The notes under the pieces were generated by a model, which worked only from the letters and a program-made list of their open reading frames with translations, was not told where the DNA came from and made no database searches. The position numbers were made by a program, and so were the translations under genes. A stretch of 56,787 nucleotides of DNA from positions 1 to 56,787 of the IMG/VR virus record IMGVR_UViG_3300028610_000868; one strand, written 5' to 3'. The DNA comes from a virus (taxonomy: Duplodnaviria > Caudoviricetes). This document shows, piece after piece, positions 8,033-56,787 of the stretch. Each line of letters opens with the position of its first letter. Position 1 is the first letter of the stretch.

Positions 8033-8626
8033 TTATAATATGAAGCCACTTCCTGAGGAACCAGCACCGCCAGTAGCTTTACCGGAAACACCGTCAGGGT
8101 TAATATTCTGACGTGCATGGTCAAATCGGAAAGTAACCGTTACCTTCACAGATTCAGATGCTGCATAATCTAGGTCAGTGAAGTCAACGTTCTGTATGAA
8201 CGCGCCTTCCAAAATCCATGTTTCAACAACAGATGTATTACCATCCAGTAAGTCCATCTTAATAGCAAATTTATAATCCTGTCCAGATGGTGCAGAAGGC
8301 AAACGTGGGGCCGCAGTCAAACCAATAATACTTTGCTGTAGCTCTAGTTGTTCTTGTAATGCTGCCGTTACACCACCGTTCAAATCGTCTTCAAAGGTGA
8401 TATTAACTGGCTCAAAGATGTGTTTACCAGCAACATATCCCTTAGAGTTGTAACGATCTAGTACAACCTCTTCGAATTGTAGTTTAGGGCGGTCGGCACT
8501 TATTGCGTTCAAACGAAGCGGTTCAGAGTCACCAGCCATATTTTGAAACGTTATTGCCCACTTGTGTTTTAGGCGCGGTTGGGCAATTCCACCACCATCT
8601 ACGCCTAAGTCAGTAATTAATGCCAT
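8033..8626 (-). CDS. gp19: Tail tube protein (gp19-like)
   Basis: QPRLKHKW, SADRPKL, YVAGKH, ITFEDD, W.LEGAF, LDYAAS, VTFRFDHA. Confidence 0.9.
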   Translation of the reverse strand: MALITDLGVDGGGIAQPRLKHKWAITFQNMAGDSEPLRLNAISADRPKLQFEEVVLDRYNSKGYVAGKHIFEPVNITFEDDLNGGVTAALQEQLELQQSIIGLTAAPRLPSAPSGQDYKFAIKMDLLDGNTSVVETWILEGAFIQNVDFTDLDYAASESVKVTVTFRFDHARQNINPDGVSGKATGGAGSSGSGFIL

Positions 8627-8659
8627 CGATTATTCTCCCTTGCATAGGTCTGTTTAAAG

Positions 8660-8667
8660 TATTTATA
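8660..8667 (-). promoter_or_regulatory. T4-type late promoter TATAAATA
   Basis: Exact match upstream of tube gene with GGGAG SD. Confidence 0.75.
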
Positions 8668-8739
8668 GAACCTGCATTTATTTTTTACATGTTTTCGGTA
8701 TAATGATAAATAAATATATGTAGAATATGGAGTTAAACA

Positions 8740-9483
8740 ATGGCCTCTTTTAAACAATACGTTGCAGAAAGCATTCTTAGTGAACAGGACAAATCTGAAG
8801 TCAACGCAGATGTCATCTATCAGAAGATGTTAGATGTGTTAGATAATGCCCATATTGACTTTAGTGAAGACATGATTAATTTTCACTTGGGGAGAATCAT
8901 CAAGAACAGTAACATTAATATATCTGTAGTTATACGCGTGGAAGACCGAGATGATGTGCGTTTGGGGCGTAACAAGGATACTGGTGAATTGACCATAGTA
9001 GTGGGAAGCCGTAAAGAACTTCCAGCTAGGACGGAAATAGATGCTTTCCTATCCAAAGACCGTGCCAGAGCCCAAAAAGTAAAGGGATTCATCTCTCAAT
9101 ATCTTACTGATTTCTACAGAAACGAAGACCCTTCCCTTATTACCACGAAGTATGAAGAAGAAACTGAAGCTAATTCAAGTATTGATGACCGATACGAAAA
9201 GCTTGCCCAGCAGTTAAAAGGTCGTATGGATGACTATAATGGTATGATAGAAGACCTTCAGGGTGATATGGATACCGAAAACACCGGTAAACAGGAAACG
9301 GCCAAAAGAGCTATGAAACATTTGGCCAAAGAACAATTTGGTGATACTCTGGAAGAATTCAAGAAAATTGCCTTGAAGTTGTTCGGTGTTTCAAAACTTA
9401 TGAGCAAAGAAAACAAGGAAAAATTGTCCAATAGATTAGACAGTTTTTACGATCAGAAAATTAAGCCATTGTTGGCCAAGTAA
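8740..9483 (+). CDS. Hypothetical protein, probable capsid-internal protein
   Basis: N-terminus MASFKQYVAES resembles the T4 capsid-targeting sequence; GGAG SD; ATAAATA upstream. Confidence 0.6.
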   Translation: MASFKQYVAESILSEQDKSEVNADVIYQKMLDVLDNAHIDFSEDMINFHLGRIIKNSNINISVVIRVEDRDDVRLGRNKDTGELTIVVGSRKELPARTEIDAFLSKDRARAQKVKGFISQYLTDFYRNEDPSLITTKYEEETEANSSIDDRYEKLAQQLKGRMDDYNGMIEDLQGDMDTENTGKQETAKRAMKHLAKEQFGDTLEEFKKIALKLFGVSKLMSKENKEKLSNRLDSFYDQKIKPLLAK

Positions 9484-46983: not shown

Positions 46984-47404
46984 ATACATGTGGGTTGAAA
47001 GTCCCAGTTCTGTTCATCTGCATAACGGAATCATCATCACCTAATTTGAAGTTACTGTCATACTCGTCATCGTATACATCAGTATTAGGGAGTAATTCAC
47101 TATCAATTTCTTTGGAGTTTTTCATATTAGCGGCTCTTCGCCTGTCCCTGCTACCACCAAGGCTGTGGCTTAGCTCAATTGCCTGTTGCCCATTTTTTGT
47201 TAGTTCACTGTTGTTATCAACTAGCCCATACTCTTGTAATTCGTACACTATATCCATCATTCGGTCTGAAGCATTATCAAAATCCAAGCGGCCATCATAA
47301 ATCGCTTTAAGTGCTCCGACATGAAGGGGGGATAATTCGTTAAAATTTAATCCACTTTCCATCAATACGTCTTGCACATCATGGCATATATCGGTAACTT
47401 TCAT
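46982..47404 (-). CDS. Hypothetical protein (possible winged-helix)
   Basis: 140-aa ORF with GGAG SD; ELQEYGLV...LTKNG pattern. Confidence 0.6.
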   Translation of the reverse strand: MKVTDICHDVQDVLMESGLNFNELSPLHVGALKAIYDGRLDFDNASDRMMDIVYELQEYGLVDNNSELTKNGQQAIELSHSLGGSRDRRRAANMKNSKEIDSELLPNTDVYDDEYDSNFKLGDDDSVMQMNRTGTFNPHV

Positions 47405-47458
47405 TATTATTATTATTCTCCAATTTCTTGCTTCGTATTATATTTATTCATTTCGTGC

Positions 47459-47487
47459 TTGTCAAGGAGTGTTTTATAGTTTATAAT
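47459..47487 (+). promoter_or_regulatory. Sigma70-type promoter for mazG-def-suppressor tRNA unit
   Basis: TTGTCA-17 nt-TATAAT. Confidence 0.7.
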
Positions 47488-47518
47488 CACATTTTACATC
47501 TTATTGTCGGGGAAGATA

Positions 47519-47896
47519 ATGATGGAATATGAAAACGACGCATTGTATGCTACTATTAAATTATCTAGAAAACTGCAACCTGTTGCCGAGGCTAATGACT
47601 GGAGCATATCTGATGTGCTATCTAAGGCAATAGAGGAGTTGGGTGAATTTTCGGAGGCAGTACAGATTGAACGAGGTAAAATGAAAAACAAGATGAAAAA
47701 GCTAGATGCCCCGTTCTATGAGGCTGCTGATGTAATGCAATGTATTCTGGACACCCTTTCTAGATTACATCCCAATAAGTCTCCGGCGCAGATATGTACT
47801 CTATTATACCATGCTCTACGTAGTAAAGACAAGAAATGGGAAAATGTCGTACTTGCGGAGGCGACAGTGCTTGTGACGCAAGATCATGCCCTTTAA
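47519..47896 (+). CDS. MazG-like nucleotide pyrophosphohydrolase
   Basis: KAIEELGEFSEAV and EAADV motifs. Confidence 0.8.
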   Translation: MMEYENDALYATIKLSRKLQPVAEANDWSISDVLSKAIEELGEFSEAVQIERGKMKNKMKKLDAPFYEAADVMQCILDTLSRLHPNKSPAQICTLLYHALRSKDKKWENVVLAEATVLVTQDHAL

Positions 47897-48404
47897 AATT
47901 CTCAAGCTTGGTAGTGAGGAACTCACAGCACCAAACCTTATAGTGAAAGACCACTGGTTTAAAACCGACCAGCTTAAGCTATTTGCTAATGAGATGTTGG
48001 CGTGTATGGCATTATCTGATGGGATTGGGCTTGCCGCCCCACAGGTCGGCAAGAACATACGGCTGTTTGTAATGAACAATTCTCCAGAAGTTTTGGTGTG
48101 CATCAATCCTGTTATAATTGAGACTTCCGAGTTTAGCAGTGTTTCTTTGGAGGGCTGTTTATCCTTCCCCGGTTTGTACCTTGATATCATACGTCCAATA
48201 ACTGTGAAGGTTGCTTATTTTGATGTGGAAGGAGACTTGGTTGAGAGGGATTTGGATGGTATATTGGCTAGATGTTTTCAACATGAACTTGATCATTTGA
48301 ACGGAATTCTCTTTACTTCTCACGTAAAAAAGATTAAACTAGATCAAGCGAGAAGGAAAGCAAAGATAACGGAAAGAAAGAAGATAAGACGAAAACGAAG
48401 GTAA
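47886..48404 (+). CDS. def: Peptide deformylase
   Basis: GIGLAAPQVG, EGCLS, QHELDH all intact. Confidence 0.96.
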   Translation: MPFKILKLGSEELTAPNLIVKDHWFKTDQLKLFANEMLACMALSDGIGLAAPQVGKNIRLFVMNNSPEVLVCINPVIIETSEFSSVSLEGCLSFPGLYLDIIRPITVKVAYFDVEGDLVERDLDGILARCFQHELDHLNGILFTSHVKKIKLDQARRKAKITERKKIRRKRR

Positions 48405-48405
48405 T

Positions 48406-48482
48406 GGCTAGGTAGCTCAGTCTGGCAGAGCGGGGGTCTCTAAAACCCTGAGTCGAGGGTTCGAACCCCTCCCTAGCCGCCA
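48406..48482 (+). tRNA. Amber suppressor tRNA (anticodon CUA), Trp-like body
   Basis: GGCTAGG/CCTAGCC acceptor, GCTC/GAGC D stem, GGGGT-CT CTA AA-ACCCT anticodon arm, GAGGG-TTCGAAC-CCCTC T arm, G73, CCA. Confidence 0.92.
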
Positions 48483-48507
48483 AATATTTGAAACATTACT
48501 TCCTGAG

Positions 48508-48536
48508 TAGACTTTTTAAAAAAGATGTGCTATCAT
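48508..48536 (+). promoter_or_regulatory. Sigma70-type promoter, likely giving a leaderless mRNA
   Basis: TAGACT-17 nt-TATCAT with TG extension; ATG 7 nt downstream, no SD. Confidence 0.5.
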
Positions 48537-48543
48537 GTTCCTC

Positions 48544-48900
48544 ATGAATAACACAGACACCAAGCGTACCCCAGTAAACAGCTCTAGTATGTGGGAAATC
48601 CTTGTGCCTACGGCAAACAATGAGGGCAAGCCATTTCGTACTAGATACCACAGGGTATGGGATGTAAAAGTTCGTAGGCTTTCCCATGGGTTAACTATAC
48701 TTAGTCCTGTTAGAGGGCAGTTTGTGGCCCCGGATGGGGAATTATTTACAGAACGTATGATTCCTGTAAGGATCATGTGTCCGAGAGAAGATATAAATAA
48801 GATTATTGACTTTACTATGAGATATTATGATCAGGATGCAGTTTTGGCCTACATGATATCCTCAGATTGCATTTTAAAATATCGGGAGACAAGGCAATAA
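48544..48900 (+). CDS. Hypothetical protein
   Basis: MWEILVPT...GLTILSPVRGQF...ERMIPVRIMC...YYDQDAVLAY; protein-like composition. Confidence 0.7.
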   Translation: MNNTDTKRTPVNSSSMWEILVPTANNEGKPFRTRYHRVWDVKVRRLSHGLTILSPVRGQFVAPDGELFTERMIPVRIMCPREDINKIIDFTMRYYDQDAVLAYMISSDCILKYRETRQ

Positions 48901-48946
48901 TGCCAACCACAGGGGTAAAAAATGTATATAACGAAAGGAGAAATTC

Positions 48947-49504
48947 ATGAATACATTTTTTACAGGCGACCAACACTTTGGTCATAAAAACATTTGCAGG
49001 TTTGTAAATCGCCCTTTCGCTTCCATTGAGGAAATGAATGAGGCACTTATCAAGAATCATAATGACACGGTTAACCCCGGTGATGTAGTTTGGTTTTTGG
49101 GTGATTTTGGCTTTATGAGTCAAACTGGTATCAGAGCCATTCTAAGACGATTGAATGGTCAGAAGAATCTTATCTTGGGAAATCATGATAAGCCTTTTAT
49201 GAAACGCGGAAGGGAATTTATAGGCAAAGGATTGCTTAATGCCATTTTTCATTATAGAGAAATCAATATTGAAAAACAGCATATAGTTCTTCTTCACTAC
49301 GGTATGAGGGTGTGGAACAGGGCACATCACAGTTCATGGCATCTATACGGTCATTCTCATGGGTCACTCCCCCCATATCATAAATCACTTGATGTAGGAG
49401 TAGACTCTAAGGAGATAACCCCTGAATACAGACCTTATGCCTTTGAAGAGGTAAAGAGGTTTATGCAATCGAGAACGGCAGAATCGGTAGATCACCACAA
49501 CTAA
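48947..49504 (+). CDS. Calcineurin-like metallophosphoesterase
   Basis: GDQHFGH, LGDF, GNHD, LLHY, YGHSH; AAGGAG SD. Confidence 0.93.
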   Translation: MNTFFTGDQHFGHKNICRFVNRPFASIEEMNEALIKNHNDTVNPGDVVWFLGDFGFMSQTGIRAILRRLNGQKNLILGNHDKPFMKRGREFIGKGLLNAIFHYREINIEKQHIVLLHYGMRVWNRAHHSSWHLYGHSHGSLPPYHKSLDVGVDSKEITPEYRPYAFEEVKRFMQSRTAESVDHHN

Positions 49505-49524
49505 TTTATTTTGTTTGGTGTGAA

Positions 49525-50241
49525 TTAACCGAACTTAAGGTCGTCTAGGTTATCATCCCCATCATCCCCACCGATAGCAGCTAAGTCGTCTATTGCACTA
49601 GGGCGTTGTAGTGGTGCAGCCTTGCCACGTTTTTCTCTATGGGCTTCTAATGCTTCCTTCCCCTCTGGAGTAATGGCACCATCTGCGGTTACAAACTCAT
49701 CTTTTTTAAGCATGTCGAAGGTTTCGGAATACTTATCATTCTGTATAATATCGGTGCTAAGCTTGCCCTGACTTGCCATATTCAATATGAAGGGAGCGAA
49801 TTTGCCATAAACTGTGATATCAGCCTCCGGTGCAAAACCGTCATCTGGCTGTTCTCCTTTAACCTTTCCTGTAGTGGCTTTTTTGATTTCCGCTTTGGCT
49901 GTTTTCTTGATCTTATCCATGTTTTTCATGGTACGCTTTAAGGCGGCAGTCAAGGATTTACTGTTATTGGTTATTGCCTTCCTGTGTTTAGCAGACTCCT
50001 TTTTGTCGAAGCCACCACTTTTCTGAAGTCTAGCTACAATAGTTCTGGCCCTTGCTACAGCTTCTATTCTGCTCTGTAGCTCAGCAACCTTTTGGACAAG
50101 ATCATCACTTAGATCATCTAAAACGCCTTCATTTAACTGGGTGAAGGCCACCAGATGCTTGTATTCATTGAGTACAGCATCCATCTGTTTTGCAAGTTCC
50201 GTAAGTTCCCAGTCACTTACCATTTCATTTAGCAAATTCAT
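49525..50241 (-). CDS. Hypothetical protein, probable virion-internal protein
   Basis: 238-aa ORF, GAGG SD, ATAAATA upstream, LNE sites near N-terminus. Confidence 0.65.
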   Translation of the reverse strand: MNLLNEMVSDWELTELAKQMDAVLNEYKHLVAFTQLNEGVLDDLSDDLVQKVAELQSRIEAVARARTIVARLQKSGGFDKKESAKHRKAITNNSKSLTAALKRTMKNMDKIKKTAKAEIKKATTGKVKGEQPDDGFAPEADITVYGKFAPFILNMASQGKLSTDIIQNDKYSETFDMLKKDEFVTADGAITPEGKEALEAHREKRGKAAPLQRPSAIDDLAAIGGDDGDDNLDDLKFG

Positions 50242-50323
50242 AACAATTCCTCATTGACAATATAGAAGTATTTATTGTAATATACGGTTTTTCCATATAA
50301 TTCATCCGAGACTAAATAAAAAT

Positions 50324-51091
50324 ATGAAAACTGTTAATACTTGGTGGTCAAAAGGCCCGTCGCCCGGTAATTTTGGGGATATACTAACTCCATTGTTAGT
50401 AGAACACTTTAGTGATCATGTTTGTGTGTTCGTCAATATGCCATTTACGTCCCCAACCTTATTTGGGACGGGGAGCATCCTTTCTCGTGCTGAAAACAAT
50501 ACTATTATCTGGGGTAGTGGGATGATGCGTGCCAGTGATCAGGTAAAGCGTGATGCCATATATCTATGTGTTCGTGGACCCAGAACGTATGAAATCCTTC
50601 AACAAAGACATGTTAAGTGTCCACCAATATTTGGTGACCCGGCATTACTTATGCCAAAGGTATATAACAGGACAGATCTTCCTAAGAGATTTGAATATGG
50701 GGTGTTTGCTCATTATGTTGATACCGAAACTGTTTCGAAATGGTATAGATACGATCAAACTGTCAAGATAATAAACCCATTGAATGCCAACCCGTTGCAG
50801 GTAATAGCTCAAACACTACAATGTGAAAGAATTATTAGCAGTTCATTGCATGGGGTGATTATAGCCCACGCTTATGGTATCCCGGCTATCTGGGTCAAGC
50901 ATTCAGATAAATTGAACGGGGACGGTATTAAGTTTCACGATCATTTTGAGTCTGTGAAACTAGTAGCTGAATGTATTGATTTTCAAGAACGTATTCCCGT
51001 AGAGGATTTGGGAAAATTTAATTATCAGGCTGGTATCAGTATTGATACTACTAAAATATCAAGAGCACTACAGAGCTATTTGAATGAGTAA
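50324..51091 (+). CDS. Polysaccharide pyruvyl transferase family protein
   Basis: GNFGDIL, GSIL, WGSG, VRGP.T, GDPALL, SSSLHGVIIAHAYGIPA, KF.D. Confidence 0.88.
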   Translation: MKTVNTWWSKGPSPGNFGDILTPLLVEHFSDHVCVFVNMPFTSPTLFGTGSILSRAENNTIIWGSGMMRASDQVKRDAIYLCVRGPRTYEILQQRHVKCPPIFGDPALLMPKVYNRTDLPKRFEYGVFAHYVDTETVSKWYRYDQTVKIINPLNANPLQVIAQTLQCERIISSSLHGVIIAHAYGIPAIWVKHSDKLNGDGIKFHDHFESVKLVAECIDFQERIPVEDLGKFNYQAGISIDTTKISRALQSYLNE

Positions 51092-51713
51092 TCCGTACCC
51101 AACAATAATTAGTTTTTACACACGGGCGTGGCTATATCCAAATTATGCTATTAAGATGCGGGTTGCATGTAAAGTTTTGGGGCTGGAGCATCATATTGTA
51201 TCTAGAGAAGATGCCGGGGGGTGGGTGGCGAACACCAGAATGAAGCCACAGTTTATCTATGAGGCCATACAGGAGTTACAGCGGCCAGTGTTGTGGATTG
51301 ACGTGGATGGTACTATATTACATATTCCAGAACTTCTCAGAGAAGGTTATCCTTTTGATTTTGCTGCAAGAAAGATGGGTAAGCATAGGGATAGAACGTG
51401 GCAAGTAGGTACGCTGTATTTCAATTATACCCCGGAATCCTTGGCGTTTTTGAAAGAATGGAATAGAAAGATAGTCGATGATACTTGGTCAGATGAATTA
51501 TCTTTGGATGAATTGTGGTTGGAACAGGGTGAAGAGATAAGAAATTTGAGAGTTGGTGAACTCCCCAAGGAATATTTTCAGATGTTACGGGGTGATAATT
51601 CGACACCATCTCCTAGTTCCGTTATATGTCATCGGGCATCTAAGGGTGATGATAAGATGCGGGTTATGAAAGGGATACGGGCTAAAAGGGCTGATCTTGG
51701 AACAGGCACATGA
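51084..51713 (+). CDS. Nucleotide-diphospho-sugar transferase (GT-A, DxD) family protein
   Basis: W..NT..KP.FI, VLWIDVDG, GTLYF, W, DE..L, VICH..S. Confidence 0.75.
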   Translation: MSNPYPTIISFYTRAWLYPNYAIKMRVACKVLGLEHHIVSREDAGGWVANTRMKPQFIYEAIQELQRPVLWIDVDGTILHIPELLREGYPFDFAARKMGKHRDRTWQVGTLYFNYTPESLAFLKEWNRKIVDDTWSDELSLDELWLEQGEEIRNLRVGELPKEYFQMLRGDNSTPSPSSVICHRASKGDDKMRVMKGIRAKRADLGTGT

Positions 51714-51743
51714 TGTTTGATTCAAAAAAGATGATAAAAAGGG

Positions 51744-51772
51744 TTGACAAGGATTTTTTTGACATATATACT
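51744..51772 (+). promoter_or_regulatory. Near-consensus sigma70 promoter, leaderless transcript
   Basis: TTGACA-17 nt-TATACT; ATG 6 nt after the -10. Confidence 0.75.
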
Positions 51773-51778
51773 TAGAGC

Positions 51779-52009
51779 ATGAACACACGAAAAGTAACAA
51801 TGAGGATGACGGATAGGGATATCCATAATACAGAATATCTCAAAGCTTTATTAGAGTCGCCAAACAAGGCAACTGCTATAAGTTCAGCATTAGAATATAC
51901 AGCAGAGCTATATAGAATGTTGAAGGCTACGGGTGATGTTTTGAAGATTCACCACCAAGATGGAAGTACTGAAATTATTACTTTTGAAAAAAGGAAGAAA
52001 AAGGGTTGA
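51779..52009 (+). CDS. Ribbon-helix-helix-like DNA-binding protein
   Basis: N-terminal alternating strand RKVTMRM followed by two helices (NKATAISSAL). Confidence 0.6.
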   Translation: MNTRKVTMRMTDRDIHNTEYLKALLESPNKATAISSALEYTAELYRMLKATGDVLKIHHQDGSTEIITFEKRKKKG

Positions 52010-52043
52010 CAGGATAAAAATTTTTGTGTAAGATGCATAAATA
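52006..52043 (+). promoter_or_regulatory. Near-consensus sigma70 promoter plus late-promoter-like motif for leader/tRNA cluster
   Basis: TTGACA-17 nt-TAAGAT, then CATAAATA at 52036-52043. Confidence 0.75.
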
Positions 52044-52105
52044 CTTTTAACAATACAGGTTTACCCCTGTGGGCAATTAAGCCCCTTAACATTGAAAACG
52101 GAACT

Positions 52106-52243
52106 ATGAAAACTTTACTAGCGAAACAATTTATACAGCAATTACCCGCGATTCTCGCGTGTGTTCCATTGCGTGTGGAAATTGCCCGCGAGAATTATGA
52201 TAGAACCTCCGCTTTCTCAGGAGTAGGTGATAAAGAAATGTAG
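52106..52243 (+). CDS. Putative 45-aa attenuator leader peptide ending in TAG (not in ORF track)
   Basis: MKTLLAKQFIQQLPAILACVPLRVEIARENYDRTSAFSGVGDKEM*; GGA SD; overlaps antiterminator arm. Confidence 0.65.
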   Translation: MKTLLAKQFIQQLPAILACVPLRVEIARENYDRTSAFSGVGDKEM

Positions 52244-52273
52244 ATCACCAAAAAGAACTTCAAGAGAAAGCGG
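52209..52273 (+). promoter_or_regulatory. Putative antiterminator
   Basis: CCGCTTTCTC (52209-52218) is the perfect complement of GAGAAAGCGG (52264-52273), the 5' arm of the terminator. Confidence 0.65.
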
Positions 52274-52294
52274 GCAGAAAGGCCCGCTTTTTTT
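52264..52294 (+). terminator. Intrinsic terminator (attenuator) upstream of tRNA cluster
   Basis: AAAGCGGGC-AGAAAG-GCCCGCTTT followed by TTTT. Confidence 0.85.
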
Positions 52295-52308
52295 GCTTTA
52301 AAATTAGG

Positions 52309-52516
52309 GTTATGTAGAGAGAGACTTATAGTCTCCCGGTTAGACCAAGTACCGGCGCAAGAGTTGAAATGCCCCGATCTACATAGCGGAACTCGACCTG
52401 ATGTGGTAATCAGGTTGCCAGCCACGCGGATCACATTGGACATTCGTCCTTCGCCGCCGAAAAGAAATCCCATCACCATTTGGGTATCTGTCTCCGTCCG
52501 GTGAAACAATAGACGG
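52309..52516 (+). ncRNA. Putative structured ncRNA (multi-hairpin)
   Basis: GTTATGTAGA/TCTACATAGC closing stem with GAGAC/GTCTC and CCGGT/ACCGG arms; further GACCTGAT/ATCAGGTT and CCGTC/GACGG hairpins. Confidence 0.5.
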
Positions 52517-52522
52517 CTTTAT

Positions 52523-52600
52523 GGAACTCTGGCAGAGGTGGTCCTATTGCGCCTGTTTGAAGAACAGGATATCTCCGTTCGATTCGGGGGGGTTCTACCA
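52523..52600 (+). tRNA. tRNA-Phe(GAA)
   Basis: Cloverleaf; CCTGT-TT GAA GA-ACAGG; TTCGATT; CCA. Confidence 0.88.
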
Positions 52601-52653
52601 AATCACTTGCATAAAGTATCACTTTCCGATACTATATGCAACCAATTACTGCG

Positions 52654-52732
52654 GTGCTGTGACCGCCTCACTGTCTGTTATTATGATGGTGAGTGACCAC
52701 CAAGACTCGGTGGCCTGATAAATGCACAGCAC
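52654..52732 (+). ncRNA. Putative three-way-junction ncRNA
   Basis: GTGCTGTG/CACAGCAC closing stem; CTCACTGTC/GATGGTGAG and CCACC/GGTGG arms. Confidence 0.5.
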
Positions 52733-52738
52733 GAATTT

Positions 52739-52856
52739 AGACATGTGGCTGAGTGGATAAGTGCTAGTGGGTCTGGTAATCTAAGGGTCTTACAAACTAA
52801 TAACTTAGATTGGCTGCTAGATTAGAACAGCGGTTCGAATCCGTTCATGTCTTCTA
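52739..52856 (+). ncRNA. tRNA-like RNA with greatly extended anticodon arm
   Basis: AGACATG/CATGTCT acceptor, D-loop AGTGG, AGCGG-TTCGAAT-CCGTT T arm; about 60-nt arm replaces the anticodon loop; ends CTA, not CCA. Confidence 0.65.
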
Positions 52857-52867
52857 ACAAACACAAT

Positions 52868-52954
52868 GCCCCTGTGGTGGAATTGGTATACACGCTAGTT
52901 TTAGAAACTAGTGGCCGAAAGGTCGTGGAGGTTCGATGCCTCTCAGGGGTACCA
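52868..52954 (+). tRNA. tRNA-Leu(TAG)
   Basis: CTAGT-TT TAG AA-ACTAG; long variable arm; CCA. Confidence 0.92.
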
Positions 52955-52957
52955 AAT

Positions 52958-53042
52958 TAGTAGGTTCGAAAACGCCTTCCGGCACCAACCCAAGTGGTGT
53001 AAGGGGTACATACGACACGATTAGTACTTTCCGGCACTACTA
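52958..53042 (+). ncRNA. Putative small structured ncRNA
   Basis: TAGTAG/CTACTA closing stem, GCACCA/TGGTGT and GGTAC/GTACT arms. Confidence 0.35.
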
Positions 53043-53060
53043 CATTTTTAAAGTAACAAT

Positions 53061-53137
53061 GCGCTATTCCTCTAGTGGCCCAAGAGTCTGGACTTTCAAT
53101 TCAGGGAACGTCGGTTCGAATCCGACATAGCGTACCA
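53061..53137 (+). tRNA. tRNA-Glu(TTC)
   Basis: CTGGA-CT TTC AA-TTCAG; GTCGG-TTCGAAT-CCGAC; CCA. Confidence 0.9.
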
Positions 53138-53146
53138 AAAAGCAAT

Positions 53147-53233
53147 GCCGCTGTGGTGGAATTGGTATACACGCATGTTTCAAACGCATGTGCTCGAAAG
53201 GGCATGGAGGTTCAAGTCCTCTCGGCGGTACCA
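53147..53233 (+). tRNA. tRNA-Leu(CAA)
   Basis: CATGT-TT CAA AC-GCATG; long variable arm; CCA. Confidence 0.9.
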
Positions 53234-53287
53234 CTTTATAGATTATTGTGATATAATATCAGCTTTACATGTATATAAGAGGCACTC

Positions 53288-53551
53288 ATGGCAGAGTTAT
53301 ATTCTGATACTCCGGTAAAAAGAGTTGTAATACCGTGGCGCACGCGGGCTATAGGGTGGTTTACTGGATTGCCGCACAGCTATCCACATTCTTCAAGAGA
53401 GTGGATTAGTTCCTCATTAGATGAGGCGAAAGAGTTGATTGCTACATTTTCTCTAGCAATGCATTCGCCCTTTTATACAATGCCATGTAGTACCACGTGT
53501 AAGATATGTAATATGTGCCCAGCCTTATATCGTAAAGCTGCAAGCGAATAA
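53288..53551 (+). CDS. Hypothetical protein with C-terminal Cys cluster
   Basis: 87-aa ORF with GAGG SD; CSTTCKICNMC. Confidence 0.5.
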   Translation: MAELYSDTPVKRVVIPWRTRAIGWFTGLPHSYPHSSREWISSSLDEAKELIATFSLAMHSPFYTMPCSTTCKICNMCPALYRKAASE

Positions 53552-53555
53552 CAAT

Positions 53556-53642
53556 GCCCCTGTGGTGGAACTGGTATACACGCTGGACTTAAAACTCAGT
53601 GGCCGAAAGGTCGTGGAGGTTCGATGCCTCTCAGGGGTACCA
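53556..53642 (+). tRNA. tRNA-Leu(TAA)
   Basis: CTGGA-CT TAA AA-CTCAG; body nearly identical to Leu(TAG); CCA. Confidence 0.9.
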
Positions 53643-53708
53643 AATGTATCATATATGATACATTAGACGGTTTAATGCTCTATATATAGCACATTTGATA
53701 GAAATTAT

Positions 53709-53793
53709 GCATGAGTTGGACAGCGTGGTGGGTCCATCAGACTGTAAATCTGAAGCTTCGGCCTTGTAGGTTCGATTCCTACCTCATGCACCA
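53709..53793 (+). tRNA. tRNA-Tyr(GTA), long variable arm
   Basis: TCAGA-CT GTA AA-TCTGA; GTAGG-TTCGATT-CCTAC; CCA. Confidence 0.92.
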
Positions 53794-53863
53794 AACGTTG
53801 GGTAATATGAAAAGGAACCATCCACTCCCTCCGGGGACTGGTTGGCCCTTGAATTATTATCAA

Positions 53864-53978
53864 GTCACAAGATGAGAAGTAATACTATCATCTAAGGCCA
53901 AGACCTTGCCTTTGCAGCGGGGAATGTGGGTTTCAAATTCCCACTAGTATTATGGGTAGGCCACCCTAGTCTTGTGGC
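53864..53978 (+). ncRNA. ncRNA containing an embedded tRNA-like cloverleaf with no free CCA end
   Basis: Inner TAATACTA/TAGTATTA acceptor-like stem, D-like arm, CTTGC-CT TTG CA-GCGGG arm, GTGGG-TTTCAAATT-CCCAC T-like arm; outer GTCACAAGA/TCTTGTGGC stem. Confidence 0.55.
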
Positions 53979-53990
53979 GGATCTAATTTT

Positions 53991-54066
53991 GGGGCGGAAG
54001 CTAAAGTGGATAAGCGTTAGTCTGTAAAACTAACTATAGTTGGTTCGAGTCCAACCCACCTCACCA
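53991..54066 (+). tRNA. Atypical tRNA with GTA (Tyr) anticodon and short variable loop
   Basis: TTAGT-CT GTA AA-ACTAA; 5-nt variable loop; A8; C5-A68 mismatch; CCA. Confidence 0.8.
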
Positions 54067-54069
54067 ATT

Positions 54070-54218
54070 TGATAGTGTACTAACACGTAAAGGTGTGTAA
54101 GAAAACAGCCAAGAGTGGCCTAAGACGAGTGCATACTACCTTGTAATGATGGGTATGCAACGTGAACTACGCATGACATAAGCAAAAGGTTCCTAAGTGT
54201 AAATCTTGTCAGCTATCA
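54070..54218 (+). ncRNA. Putative structured ncRNA
   Basis: TGATAGT/GCTATCA closing stem; ACAC/GTGT, GCCA/TGGC and TGCATAC/GTATGCA arms. Confidence 0.4.
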
Positions 54219-54351
54219 TTTTTATTTTAAAATATACTGTGGTAAATTGTGGAAGAGTGCATAAATATGCATTATAGGGCAACCAATCCTATCTGTAGGG
54301 TATTTCCATTCCTATATATGAAAGGGAAAAACGTACAGAAGTATATTTTAT

Positions 54352-54429
54352 CGGGGATTAGCTCAGTCTGGTCAGAGCACTGCGTTTGGGGCGCAGGGGC
54401 CGAAGGTTCAAATCCTTCATTCCCGACCA
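54352..54429 (+). tRNA. tRNA-Pro(TGG)
   Basis: CTGCG-TT TGG GG-CGCAG; C1-G72, A73; CCA. Confidence 0.95.
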
Positions 54430-54439
54430 ATAAAAGAGT

Positions 54440-54514
54440 TTGCAGGTAGCCGTGGAGAGTTAGTCGTCACCACTATGATGTCAAGACTAGGCATAATAGC
54501 ATACGGCCCTGCAA
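54440..54514 (+). ncRNA. Putative small structured ncRNA
   Basis: TTGCAGG/CCTGCAA, GCCGT/ACGGC and TTAGTC/GACTAG nested stems. Confidence 0.45.
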
Positions 54515-54557
54515 TTGAATTATCTCTACGCAGTTTAGTCTGGTAGAGCACTTGTTT

Positions 54558-54635
54558 CGGGGATTAGCTCAGTCTGGTCAGAGCACTGCGTTCGGGGCGC
54601 AGGGGCCGAAAGTTCGAATCTTTCATTCCCGACCA
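54558..54635 (+). tRNA. tRNA-Pro(CGG)
   Basis: CTGCG-TT CGG GG-CGCAG; near copy of Pro(TGG); CCA. Confidence 0.95.
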
Positions 54636-54637
54636 AT

Positions 54638-54802
54638 TAGTGTTGTAATGTGGCTTTCATCGCAGAGACTGAAAGTCATTGGAAGTGATATTAATTCATG
54701 TTAACCTATTCTCTGGGGGGCATGATAGGAGCGGGTCTATGCCCAATGGGAATAAAATAGGCCGGTACTGGGGTCATGCCCGGTACACTTCCCACAATAT
54801 TA
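54638..54802 (+). ncRNA. Putative multibranch ncRNA (about 165 nt)
   Basis: TAGTGTTGT/ACAATATTA, TGGCTTTCA/TGAAAGTCA, GGAAGTG/CACTTCC, GGTCTAT/ATAGGCC, GTACTGGG/CCCGGTAC stems. Confidence 0.55.
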
Positions 54803-54812
54803 ATTTTACAAT

Positions 54813-54887
54813 TGGCCTATAGTATAATTGGCAGTGCATGAGCCTCTGACGCTCTCGGTCTAGGTTCGAATCCTAGTGGGCCAGCCA
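54813..54887 (+). tRNA. tRNA-Gln(CTG)
   Basis: T1-A72, G73; TGAGC-CT CTG AC-GCTCT; CTAGG-TTCGAAT-CCTAG; CCA. Confidence 0.92.
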
Positions 54888-54901
54888 AGTTTCACCAAGG
54901 A

Positions 54902-55093
54902 TATGGCGGTGCCAAACGTAGGCACTGTATAAGATGATGACGGTTCGAGTACGTAACATGGCAACCATCACCATAACCGTTTGTAAGCGCACATGAAGGT
55001 GAATTTGAACTGTGGTGTTCTGTGGACAGGCTGATACCGGCACAGTGTAAAGGGAAACATGGTGGAGATAACCCAAGACACCCCCACACCATA
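54902..55093 (+). ncRNA. Putative structured ncRNA (about 190 nt)
   Basis: GCGGTGCC/GGCACTGT, GACGGTT/AACCGTT, ACTGTG/CACAGT stems; GC-richer non-coding gap between tRNAs. Confidence 0.4.
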
Positions 55094-55102
55094 ATTAATA
55101 AT

Positions 55103-55180
55103 GCACCCGTAGCTCAGTCTGGACAGAGCGTTCGCCTACGAAGCGAAGGGCCGAGGGTTCAAATCCTTCCGGGTGTGCCA
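55103..55180 (+). tRNA. tRNA-Arg(ACG)
   Basis: TTCGC-CT ACG AA-GCGAA; CCA. Confidence 0.95.
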
Positions 55181-55218
55181 AAGTTGTGGTAAATAGTATA
55201 AACGTCGGAGAAAATATT

Positions 55219-55473
55219 ATGGATTTATATCAAAAAGCATTAAATGCTAAAAGATATAAACGTGAAGAAGAAAGATTGAAAAAACGAACAACAAAATCTA
55301 TTGAAGAAGAATTAGAAGTTGTTAAACGTAAGGATGATGAATTAAAAGAACGTATAGGAACGCGGAGTAAAGAGATAAACTCATCTCTATTGAATGAACG
55401 TTTTAGAACACTAGTTAGAGCATATCGTTTAATGAGTCATTTACAGAAACGACCTAAAGTATATCTAGTTTAA
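55219..55473 (+). CDS. Hypothetical charged coiled-coil protein
   Basis: ATG with GGAG SD; MDLYQKALNAKRYKREEE... Confidence 0.55.
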   Translation: MDLYQKALNAKRYKREEERLKKRTTKSIEEELEVVKRKDDELKERIGTRSKEINSSLLNERFRTLVRAYRLMSHLQKRPKVYLV

Positions 55474-55476
55474 AAT

Positions 55477-55553
55477 GCCCCGGTAGCTCAGTAGGACAGA
55501 GCAGCTTCCTTCTAAGGAGACCGTCGAGGGTTCGAATCCTTCTCGGGGTGCCA
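55477..55553 (+). tRNA. tRNA-Arg(TCT)
   Basis: GCTTC-CT TCT AA-GGAGA; GAGGG-TTCGAAT-CCTTC; CCA. Confidence 0.92.
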
Positions 55554-55561
55554 AATATTTA

Positions 55562-55590
55562 TTGACAGTGATTAGGTGATGTGTTATCCT
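55562..55590 (+). promoter_or_regulatory. Sigma70-type promoter for tnpB
   Basis: TTGACA-17 nt-TATCCT with TG extension. Confidence 0.55.
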
Positions 55591-55620
55591 TTAATCTTAC
55601 GCTATTAAAGGTTATTAAAG

Positions 55621-56769
55621 TTGATATTACGAGCATATAAATTTCCTTGTTATCCTGATGAAAGGCAGAAAGCGCAGCTAGAGATTGAGTTTGCCGCAGC
55701 CCGTGCTATATTCAATTGGGGTTTAGCTACTCGTAAAGGTGAATATGAAAAGGATAAGACACGTGTTAGTAGGGTAGATTGTAATAAGCGTTTGACTCAA
55801 TTAAAAAAACATCCAGATGAATATTGGCCAGAACATATGGGTGGCACGGAATGGTTAAAAAATGCCAGTGTTACTGTATTACAATATTCGTTAATTAATC
55901 TTGATACAGCTTATAAGAATTTTTTTGAAGGTACTGCAAAGTATCCACAATTTAAAGTAAAGGGTAAAGCGCGAAATTCAGTAACTTACCCAATTTCTGC
56001 TTGTGTATATTTACATGAGGAAGAAAAGTTATGGTTAACAAACCAATATTATAGAAAAATGTCTTCGTTGAAAATTAAACGAGACCGTAAATTACCAACG
56101 GAACCAATAAAGGTAACAGTTAGTAAAGACAGGGTTGGTAATTATTTTATAAGTTTTCTTGTTAAGGAAGATATCGATCCATTACCGAAGACTGGAAAGG
56201 TGGTTGGGGTTGATGTTGGGATCACGGATGTTGTCATTACTGATGATGGTTATAAGAGTGGTAACCCGAAAAGTACTGCAAAATATGCAAAGAAGTTAAA
56301 AAAATTACAAAGGCAAAAACGCTTAAAGGAAAAGGGAAGTAATAATCAGGAGAAACTTAGGATAAAGATTGCAAAGGTTCATAAGAAAATTGCTGACACT
56401 CGTTTAACATTTTTACATAGGGAAAGCAAAAGGTTAGTAGATGAAGCAGATATTATTTCTGTTGAATCGTTGAATGTTCAGGGGATGATGAAAAACCGTA
56501 AGTTATCAAAAGCAATTGCCGATGCTTCGATGTCTGAATTTCACCGGCAGTTAGAATATAAATCACAATTTTATGGAAGAAATTTTGTTAGTATTGATAA
56601 ATGGTTTCCTAGCACAAAAACATGCAGTAGTTGTCATCATGTTGTTGATAGTATACCATTATCAGATAGAAGTTGGGAATGCCCTGAATGTGGTGTCAAA
56701 CATGACAGGGATATTAATGCAGCCATTAATATTAAAGAAGAGGGTCTCAGGATTTTAAATAATGCTTAA
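55621..56769 (+). CDS. tnpB: TnpB RNA-guided endonuclease (IS200/IS605 family), solo
   Basis: RAYKF..YP, ARAIFN, YPQFK, RuvC-I VGVDVG, RuvC-II VESLNV, CSSC/CPEC zinc finger, RuvC-III HDRDINAA. Confidence 0.95.
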   Translation: MILRAYKFPCYPDERQKAQLEIEFAAARAIFNWGLATRKGEYEKDKTRVSRVDCNKRLTQLKKHPDEYWPEHMGGTEWLKNASVTVLQYSLINLDTAYKNFFEGTAKYPQFKVKGKARNSVTYPISACVYLHEEEKLWLTNQYYRKMSSLKIKRDRKLPTEPIKVTVSKDRVGNYFISFLVKEDIDPLPKTGKVVGVDVGITDVVITDDGYKSGNPKSTAKYAKKLKKLQRQKRLKEKGSNNQEKLRIKIAKVHKKIADTRLTFLHRESKRLVDEADIISVESLNVQGMMKNRKLSKAIADASMSEFHRQLEYKSQFYGRNFVSIDKWFPSTKTCSSCHHVVDSIPLSDRSWECPECGVKHDRDINAAINIKEEGLRILNNA

Positions 56770-56787
56770 AAGTTTTAAAAATAGGGG

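Follow-up and report, generated by a model that had tools for sequence, protein, structure and literature searches.

A candidate leader-ORF transcription attenuator upstream of a structured RNA and a tRNA gene cluster in an uncultured phage

The stretch of phage DNA analysed here, a 56,787-base IMG/VR virus record (IMGVR_UViG_3300028610_000868) referred to below as the window, carries on its plus strand, at positions 52006–52294, an element that we propose to be a ribosome-mediated transcription attenuator. In this proposal, a short leader open reading frame (ORF) governs transcription of the operon on its 3' side, which consists of a structured non-coding RNA (ncRNA) and transfer RNAs (tRNAs). 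We put the probability of this reading at about 0.6 and consider it well supported in silico. The evidence consists of the anatomy of the element, its conservation among relatives, pair-preserving changes in its helices, the maintenance of the ORF, and a switch between two folds in silico. An initial annotation of the same DNA had already proposed an attenuator at this place, one that samples many codons, and all the features that it described are present at the positions that it gave.

Organization of the leader region

DNA of the leader unit is available from four lineages, namely the window, L002, L098 and the pair L099/L100, two of the four being fairly close. The parts follow each other in the same order in all four: a promoter, a 5' hairpin, the leader ORF, a long hairpin, a terminator and a structured RNA. 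The structured RNA is in turn followed by a tRNA-Phe(GAA) gene and then, in the same orientation, by the tRNA cluster, with L002 as the exception. The sigma70-like promoter (TTGACA-17-TAAGAT, 52006–52034, plus strand) was rightly described as near-consensus, with 10 of 12 consensus matches, and is kept in L002, in L098 (TTGACT-17-TAAGAT) and in L099 (TTGACA-17-TACAAT). The 5' untranslated region (UTR) contains two small hairpins (ACAGG/CCTGT and GGGC/GCCC; 52055–52084, plus strand), which are both present in the minimum free energy (MFE) folds. Their sequence is conserved in L002 and L099; in the 5' UTR of L098 only the first hairpin is found, and its sequence is different. The leader ORF, previously unannotated, was found as predicted at 52106–52243 (plus strand), with 45 codons followed by TAG, and is preceded by a weak GGA Shine-Dalgarno sequence with a spacer of 3 nucleotides (nt).

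The long hairpin (52209–52273, plus strand) is the candidate antiterminator, and is composed of an outer helix of 10 base pairs (bp), a middle helix of 5 bp and an inner helix of 6 bp. In the outer helix CCGCTTTCTC (52209–52218) is the exact complement of GAGAAAGCGG (52264–52273), as had been claimed. The GGAGT/ACTTC and GGTGAT/ATCACC helices, which had likewise been recognized around the stop codon, are nested in this outer helix, and the leader stop codon lies in the apical loop. Folding identified an intrinsic terminator at 52264–52294 (plus strand), made up of an A-tract, the core GCGGGC-AGAAAG-GCCCGC (52270–52287) and seven T residues. With the A/U extension from 52264, the window terminator has an energy of -19.3 to -20.1 kcal/mol. 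The 5' arm originally assigned to it was right in part: GCGG (52270–52273) belongs to the G+C core, but GAGAAA pairs only with the U tract. The leader terminator is one of only two strict plus-strand terminators in the window; a simple terminator scan missed it, in our view because a G-T-tolerant stem extension consumed the T tract. An ORF that ends inside an antiterminator, and an antiterminator that overlaps the terminator, together make up the trp/his-type geometry that the initial annotation had described.

Both structures recur in the other lineages. The antiterminator energies in the window, L002, L098 and L099 are -25.4, -26.5, -21.4 and -34.0 kcal/mol, and the terminator energies are -19.3, -19.7, -17.1 and -18.3 kcal/mol, respectively. 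The corresponding terminator stems are GCGGGC/GCCCGC, GCGGCC/GGCCGC, GCGGCT/AGCCGC and GGCGGATC/GATTCGCC, each followed by seven or eight T residues. In all four lineages the 3' arm of the hairpin captures the first three or four G/C bases of the terminator core beside the A-tract, the 5' arm begins at codon 35–37, and the stop codon is situated in the apical part of the hairpin, 26–31 nt upstream of the terminator core. The long hairpin is more than a product of chance: an equally stable hairpin that captures the terminator core was obtained in 7 of 1000 dinucleotide shuffles of the window sequence, and in 2, 1, 0 and 0 of 500 when the same test was applied across the four lineages. A perfect complement of at least 10 nt appeared in 1 of 5000 dinucleotide shuffles.

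The sequences of the helices differ between lineages in ways that preserve pairing. The inner stem GGTGAT/ATCACC of the window is replaced by GGTCC/GGACC in L002 and L098, the middle helix shows G-U/G-C swaps at two pairs, and the outer helix of L099 is a 12-bp helix of GCCTTCTCAGTA and TACTGAGAAGGC. In the shared register 92% of the outer-helix cells are paired, compared to 44–56% when the register is slid, and the outer helix includes one compensatory change from U-A to C-G (in L099/L100). Leader ORF, antiterminator and terminator are kept together in four lineages, and both the ORF and the complementarity, on whose conservation the initial annotation had staked its proposal, proved to be conserved. 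Close variants of the window leader, about 96–98% identical, were found on Logan contigs from four DNA runs (X2–X5). None of the differences listed for them is located in the stems (8 of 10 differences listed for X2, 9 of 9 for X3 and 6 of 7 for X4, X5 being without hairpin coverage), and the unlisted differences that could be, number at most three.

Some further features of the hairpin region were noted. The sequence AGGAGU, which resembles a Shine-Dalgarno sequence, is present 9–16 nt before the leader stop in all four lineages (window 52219–52224); in L099 it lies in another reading frame and has a different pairing partner. The TATGAT within the invariant AATTATGAT was considered as an internal promoter or a sigma-dependent pause and was provisionally set aside, as no conserved -35 sequence could be seen by eye, although in L103 the combination GTGAAA-18-TATGAT scores 9 of 12. 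A role as bidirectional terminator, which the A-tract and T-tract formally allow, was also rejected, the window being without minus-strand genes downstream.

Folding with and without a ribosome

Partition-function folding was performed on transcripts that stop at the base of the U tract, which was taken to be still in the hybrid; the ribosome footprint was assumed to cover 28 nt. The value reported for the four lineages is the probability of the terminator closing pair, P(terminator). Without a ribosome P(terminator) was 0.03–0.35, and with the A site at sampled codons 2–31 it did not exceed 0.43. With the A site at codons 35–41 it was 0.82–0.98 in all four lineages. The switch point is at the same place in each of them, at the end of an invariant Asn-Tyr-Asp run: P(terminator) is at most 0.14 at the AAT and TAT codons, 0.09–0.46 at GAT, and 0.66–0.98 at the codon that follows. 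Transcripts that end before the 3' arm of the terminator fold as the antiterminator in the window and in L002, the two lineages in which this was tested. The footprint-constrained folding that the initial annotation had recommended gives the outcome expected of an attenuator, in that the terminator is predicted to form only with a late ribosome, on about codons 34–44, and the antiterminator with an upstream ribosome or none. In the full-length MFE folds of three of the four lineages, the region of the start codon pairs with the 5' arm of the antiterminator or with the bases just 5' of it, a pairing considered in relation to the pause site or anti-antiterminator (1:2 pairing) of known attenuators.

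Maintenance of the leader ORF

The leader ORF has 45, 45, 45 and 47 codons in the window, L002, L098 and L099, respectively. Its frame contains no stops, against 3–5 in each of the other frames, in all four lineages, and the probability of an open frame given the composition is 0.04–0.07 per lineage. The start codon is found at a fixed distance of 87–90 nt upstream of AATTATGAT in the four lineages, and the indel between the leaders of the window and L002 measures 3 nt. Such features speak in favour of translation of the leader.

The encoded peptide itself is far less constant. Its first 29 residues have diverged strongly between lineages, and the invariant residues (M1, Q8, L17, N30, Y31, D32, A36, F37 and V40) cluster in the Asn-Tyr-Asp run and the hairpin arm. 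We attribute the invariance of A36, F37 and V40 to the RNA constraint on the hairpin arm, in which they lie. Counted by eye, the window and L002 differ at 5 codons in a purely synonymous and at 8 in a non-synonymous manner. The listed ORF changes of the close variants comprise 2 synonymous and 3 non-synonymous codons as well as the stop that X2 carries at codon 43, and the C-termini of the peptide differ between lineages. Selection on the peptide at the amino-acid level looks weak. The codon-usage score of the leader, 0.128, falls between that of genes (0.25 ± 0.115) and that of out-of-frame windows (-0.11 ± 0.13). No Pfam family matched the leader peptide, and no PHROGs family was assigned, one of the four members giving a match at an E-value of 0.031. 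The pattern is that of an ORF that must be translated and whose product matters little; a functional small protein would also be compatible with it, and seems to us improbable.

Other functions of the leader were considered and rejected. Read-through of the amber stop by tRNAs with a CTA anticodon, as a route to antitermination, would open 86 further codons in the window if TAG is read as a residue. By eye, L002 ends with TGA and then TAG, L099 ends with TAA, and L098 reaches TAA 12 codons on, and these divergent stop arrangements indicate that amber read-through is not conserved. A lipoprotein signal (ILAC) in the peptide was discarded, the Cys being Ser in L002, as was a type I toxin, since no clean hydrophobic helix was apparent by eye.

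Codon content of the leader

The first 45 codons include 35 distinct codons in the window, in agreement with the original count, and 34, 32 and 34 in L002, L098 and L099. In 45-codon windows of phage genes the mean is 27.9 (standard deviation 2.8), and 35 distinct codons are reached in 0.4% of 13,732 overlapping and 1.6% of 317 non-overlapping windows. Triplet windows of the RNA-gene region have a mean of 31.9, with 13.1% reaching 35, and the nucleotide-shuffled leader has a mean of 32.3, with 16.6% reaching 35. The leader is therefore as diverse as sequence without codon bias, and its diversity offers no evidence of a sampling design. The high diversity that had been pointed out exists relative to phage genes (0.4% of windows reaching 35), the comparison that the initial annotation had named as a possible refutation, but is ordinary relative to shuffled or unbiased sequence (13–17%). 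It reflects a missing codon bias, which might be imposed by the RNA structure.

The initial annotation had also remarked on the absence of an amino-acid run. There is indeed no run of a single residue, but the conserved AAT TAT GAT (Asn-Tyr-Asp) run at codons 30–32 (52193–52201, plus strand) had been overlooked. It is invariant in the four lineages, and its codons are candidate control codons. The run reads NNYD in L098, DNYD in L099, with a His two codons later, and YND in P0005, a relative known from its protein. All its codons are of the type NAU, which are read by tRNAs with a GUN anticodon, and it occupies the last A-site positions at which a modelled paused ribosome still frees the antiterminator, which is where the control codons of classical attenuators are found. 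As a tentative possibility, to which we give rather little weight, the leader may serve specifically to sense how well the GUN-anticodon (queuosine-family) tRNAs, which carry Asn, Tyr, Asp or His, are decoding. The control codons would then be the NAU codons, three to four in succession, and depletion or under-modification of GUN tRNAs would turn on the phage tRNA operon and the ncRNA. Such a sensor, if real, would amount to an inducible counter-defence, and host tRNA-cleaving immunity would be among the possible causes of depletion. Colicin-E5-type nucleases cut exactly the tRNAs for Tyr, His, Asn and Asp. Retron-Eco7 is reported to degrade tRNA-Tyr (PMC11555353).

Proposed mechanism and alternative explanations

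We propose that host RNA polymerase would start at the sigma70-like promoter and that a ribosome would load on the 45-codon leader ORF. If this ribosome is on about codons 34–45 when the polymerase is at the U tract, it would occupy the upstream arm of the long hairpin; the terminator would then fold, and the transcript would end at about 52294. With no ribosome, or with a lead ribosome that lags or is paused at or before codons 30–32, the hairpin would form first and take the first G/C bases of the terminator, leading to read-through into the ncRNA of about 215 nt, tRNA-Phe and beyond. Slow translation would thereby result in more, and efficient translation in fewer, of the phage translation RNAs.

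Several points weigh against this proposal. We infer from the sequence that the ORF is translated and that termination and read-through alternate in vivo; what slows the ribosome is likewise an inference. The comparison includes only four sequenced lineages, two of which are fairly close, and covariation in the outer helix is thin, with 1 compensatory pair and 46 of 500 shuffles that equal its score. The Shine-Dalgarno sequence is weak (GGA or GAG) and has a short spacer. The size of the ribosome footprint was assumed, and the switch is displaced by one codon if the footprint is changed by 2–3 nt. The full-length equilibrium MFE fold, in which the U tract is free, favours the terminator in three of the four lineages, and the switch would accordingly have to be a kinetic one. 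When the ribosome is placed on the stop codon, the outer helix of the model closes around it and P(terminator) is 0.03–0.42 in three lineages, an outcome that we discounted on steric grounds only. Sigma70-like promoters are also present inside the cluster in every lineage examined. Finally, the peptide is partly conserved at the amino-acid level, with an Arg encoded by AGA in three lineages and by CGT in L099, which would also fit a functional small protein.

The last point leads to the explanation that the leader merely encodes a small protein and ends in a somewhat leaky terminator of its own, and that the downstream RNAs arise by constitutive read-through and processing, with no switch. The long hairpin would then be a stabiliser of the messenger RNA or a processing element of the RNase III type, and an interrupted helix of 21–25 bp does, we presume, resemble phage RNase III sites. 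The C-terminal peptide motif with its Arg codons, the intermediate codon-usage score, the prediction of family ORFs by gene callers in public data (P0002, P0003 and P0005) and a terminator that is formally bidirectional are in line with such a gene. However, a stabiliser or processing site has no need of a 3' arm that captures the terminator core, as is observed in every lineage. The strong divergence of the N-terminal two thirds of the peptide, the lack of a Pfam or PHROG family, the premature stop in the close relative X2 together with the differing C-termini, and the ratio of 2 synonymous to 3 non-synonymous codons plus a stop in close relatives also speak against it, and we regard this explanation as unlikely.

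The codon-sampling sensor of the initial annotation, in which diversity is selected so that the loss of almost any tRNA induces the cluster, is in our opinion less likely again. It draws on the excess of distinct codons in all four leaders over phage gene windows, and on the modelled effect of a lag anywhere in the first ~32 codons, which favours read-through. Against it stand the equal diversity of unbiased triplets and of the shuffled leader and the divergence of the N-terminal codons, with no codon set maintained between lineages; moreover, the breadth of phage tRNA sets (19 tRNAs in L103) makes overlap with the encoded isoacceptors nearly automatic. The sampling design is for these reasons not supported; the geometry by itself still implies that the switch would respond to slow translation in general. 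Very unlikely, in our judgement, is a switch between hairpin and terminator that is set by a factor acting in trans, with translation of the ORF being incidental. The factor could be a protein, of either the phage or the host, but also a tRNA or the ncRNA encoded downstream, and it would bind to the hairpin or to its conserved AGGAGU. The presence of AGGAGU in all four hairpins, in L099 with another frame and partner, suggests a constraint on the RNA beyond pairing and would suit this idea, which nevertheless leaves unexplained why an ORF of fixed length is kept open and why the hairpin contains its stop in every lineage. Nor was there a match to an Rfam family of the T-box kind: T-box searches gave nothing at an E-value of 10 or lower on 52040–52530, L098 and L099, and nothing at an E-value of 1 or lower on 47000–56787.

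The downstream RNA genes

In the four lineages the ncRNA starts a few bases 3' of the terminator and is the first product of read-through. No promoter between terminator and ncRNA was evident by eye, and the ncRNA therefore needs read-through for its synthesis. A covariance model describes it as a structured RNA of about 215 nt with 10 helices (52306–52515 on the plus strand of the window; L002 8046–8260; L098 1501–1724 and L099 1501–1731, both on the minus strand), in which a four-way junction domain is followed by four hairpins. The model finds five loci with E-values of 1e-42 to 1e-91. Both sides have changed in 27 of the 53 pairs, and 97.1% of the cells are paired, compared to 32–43% when slid, a value reached by 0 of 500 shuffles, for an alignment that had been fitted to the model. 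Conserved single-stranded blocks include CUGAAAYGCCCC, ACGGAACUC and GCCAGCCACG.

No family of Rfam 15 matches the ncRNA, the only matches nearby being to tRNAs; a YrlA match in L099, which with 26.9 bits is below the gathering score of 69, falls on tRNA genes, outside the ncRNA. Searching phages by blastn with the ncRNA gave only lambdoid matches of 33–34 nt at E-values of 0.02 or worse, some of them near annotated nutR, which were treated as chance. We regard the ncRNA as a new RNA class. This by-product of the analysis, an RNA with very strong covariation, would be the first product of the regulated transcript.

The first tRNA gene after the ncRNA, within about 10 nt of it, is a tRNA-Phe(GAA)-like gene (52523–52600, plus strand, 45 bits). 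RNase P cleavage at its 5' end would release the ncRNA. A tRNA-Phe(GAA) gene is the first after the ncRNA in L101, L102 and L103 too; in L002 the homologue was not recognized as a tRNA. ARAGORN identified 13 tRNA genes in the window, of which 12 are on the plus strand between 52523 and 55553. L002 is the only lineage with a convergent gene, encoding a protein of 228 amino acids (aa), between the ncRNA and the tRNAs (8258–8944, minus strand), and the stop codon of this gene abuts the 3' hairpin of the ncRNA.

The initial annotation had cautioned that an internal promoter could limit the reach of the leader, and this caution was justified. A promoter-like site at 52607–52636 (TTGCAT-17-TACTAT, plus strand), which is below the scan threshold in the window, is kept in L002 (at about 9190–9225). 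It contains a palindrome, AGTATC..GATACT, across the spacer, which may be an operator. Other internal sigma70-like promoters are found in the window, in L103 (7676–7648) and, several of them, in L102, and it follows that the tRNA cluster does not depend on the leader alone. Full control by the leader would extend to the ncRNA and the first one or two tRNAs, and farther downstream it would only add to transcription from the internal promoters. Control over the whole cluster, as originally envisaged, therefore holds in so far as the unit heads the cluster in four lineages, but is limited in reach by the internal promoters and by the 228-aa gene of L002.

Within and around the tRNA cluster, some additional observations were made. 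Two window tRNAs have a CTA anticodon (amber suppressor type, labelled Pyl by ARAGORN), at 48406–48482 (65 bits) and 55477–55553 (52 bits), and tRNAs of this kind occur in relatives as well. TAG ends one of 31 tabulated long ORFs, and it is the stop codon of the leader ORF in the window and L098. A tRNA-model match of 115 nt at 52739–52853 (36.8 bits), not called by ARAGORN, may be a tRNA with an insertion; the X4 and X5 contigs skip from 52646 to 52731/52733, just upstream of it.

Comparison with known systems

Leader-peptide attenuators control the trp, his, leu, thr, ilv and pheA operons, and also pheST, which encodes a synthetase. The phage element has the structural marks of the trp/his type, i.e. 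a maintained ORF, a terminator, a mutually exclusive antiterminator and masking in silico. As in these systems, a short ORF is close to the promoter, the antiterminator and an intrinsic terminator overlap, the antiterminator arm is covered, in the model, once a ribosome has come to the end of the ORF, and candidate control codons are located just upstream of this arm. In contrast, the phage leader lacks a run of a single amino acid and has at most the 3–4-codon run of Asn, Tyr and Asp; RNA genes of the phage (ncRNA and tRNAs) take the place of biosynthetic enzymes downstream; and the default without a ribosome is, according to the folding model, read-through, with no clear superattenuation. 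In pyrBI the leader ORF runs through the terminator, and a close ribosome prevents the terminator from folding. The distance between lead ribosome and polymerase decides on termination in both cases, but with opposite sign, since 26–31 nt separate the stop of the phage ORF from the terminator core, and termination would be favoured by a close ribosome. The tRNA cluster of phage T4 contains small stable RNAs, which are probably released by tRNA processing; these resemble the ncRNA described here in being structured RNAs other than tRNA that are co-linear with phage tRNA genes. We know of no leader-ORF attenuator at the T4 tRNA cluster.

For the phenylalanine operons, an example is the pheL leader (PMC3082878). 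Leaders that respond to general translation stress, such as antibiotic-responsive ones, include the E. coli upstream ORF of topAI-yjhQ (PMC12121999), msrD (10.1101/2021.11.29.470318) and hflXr (PMC6310831). They are reported to resemble the phage leader in having no amino-acid run, in being induced by slowing of the ribosome, and in an output that helps to restore translation. These stress leaders respond to drugs, control bacterial protein genes and in some cases act via Rho, whereas the phage element has an intrinsic terminator, a phage setting and an output of tRNAs and ncRNA. By analogy, the logic of the phage element would be closest to that of leader ORFs that sense general translation stress.

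Phage tRNA genes have been presented as answers to tRNA-targeting immunity and to the decay of host translation, and the tRNAs in those accounts are reported to be expressed constitutively from strong promoters (PMC11555353, PMC11464382, PMC12409363). In the limited literature collection covered, we found no description of a leader-ORF attenuator before phage tRNA genes. If the proposed mechanism is correct, it would constitute a feedback loop by which a phage measures translation and tops it up only when needed. As the promoter is sigma70-like and the switch would need only polymerase and ribosome, the proposal is testable in a laboratory host.

Origin of the window and related sequences

The window is a fragment, with an estimated completeness of 16%. 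Its genes include those for a DNA polymerase, a portal, a tail sheath and baseplate proteins, and an ORF of 3365 aa is present as well. With its counterpart in the jumbo myovirus XacN1 of Xanthomonas (384.7 kb) the portal shares 52% identity, and from this we conclude that the window is a piece of an uncultured jumbo myovirus with distant likeness to XacN1.

The L002 contig was reached via a neighbouring 209-aa protein, and its leader unit has about 78% DNA identity to that of the window. L098, L099 and L100 were reached by a portal scan and then by searching with the covariance model of the ncRNA. Their portals are 69% (L098) and 76% (L099 and L100) identical to that of the window (69–78% for the lineages overall), and L099 and L100 differ by 1 nt over the leader region. 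A profile search with the leader peptide in 1.84 billion proteins yielded three small family ORFs (P0002, P0003 and P0005). Two of these are the L002 and L099 peptides, and P0005 represents a fifth lineage, known as protein only, the DNA of which was not found in viral contigs. Four large proteins (P0001, P0004, P0006 and P0007; 1018–5817 aa) match positions 24–43 of the leader profile in 4–22 stretches each and are probably unrelated repeat proteins.

Other searches added little. A blastn search with 51700–52700 against 50,697 phage records gave no match, tblastn of the leader peptide against phages returned only two Dickeya phage records (the same phage twice) at an E-value of 5, and a word-based protein search with the leader peptide gave no candidate. 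Exact-pattern scans of viral contigs produced 13 and 58 stretches, in each case with the L002 contig as the sole relative, and further exact-pattern scans gave only contigs already known. A metagenome scan with an alignment of two peptides brought up nothing beyond the known L002 contig and a contig of 8.5 kb identical to it, and a pattern scan of genome contigs gave 0 matches. The sequencing runs listed as holding the region included no RNA run, which says nothing about expression. The R2 version of the ncRNA model had no match in the records of XacN1, Xoo-sp13 and RAS14, a blank that in itself shows nothing.

Neighbouring genes

A gene for peptide deformylase (47886–48404; Pfam E-value 2e-41), a further gene of the phage with a link to translation, directly precedes the first suppressor-type tRNA. 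At the end of the tRNA cluster lies an ORF of 382 aa (55621–56769) that resembles TnpB/IS605 OrfB, with Cas12f1-like TNB, OrfB_IS605 and HTH domains. Upstream of the leader unit, a 76-aa gene (51779–52009, in the region 51738–52011) is situated between two copies of AAAGGGTTGACA promoters. It is absent from the X2, X3 and X4 contigs, in which 51740–51793 is joined directly to 51994–52004. The ATG of this gene is located 7 nt after the -10 sequence TATACT, an arrangement with a counterpart in L002, which suggests that the 76-aa gene is expressed from a leaderless messenger RNA.

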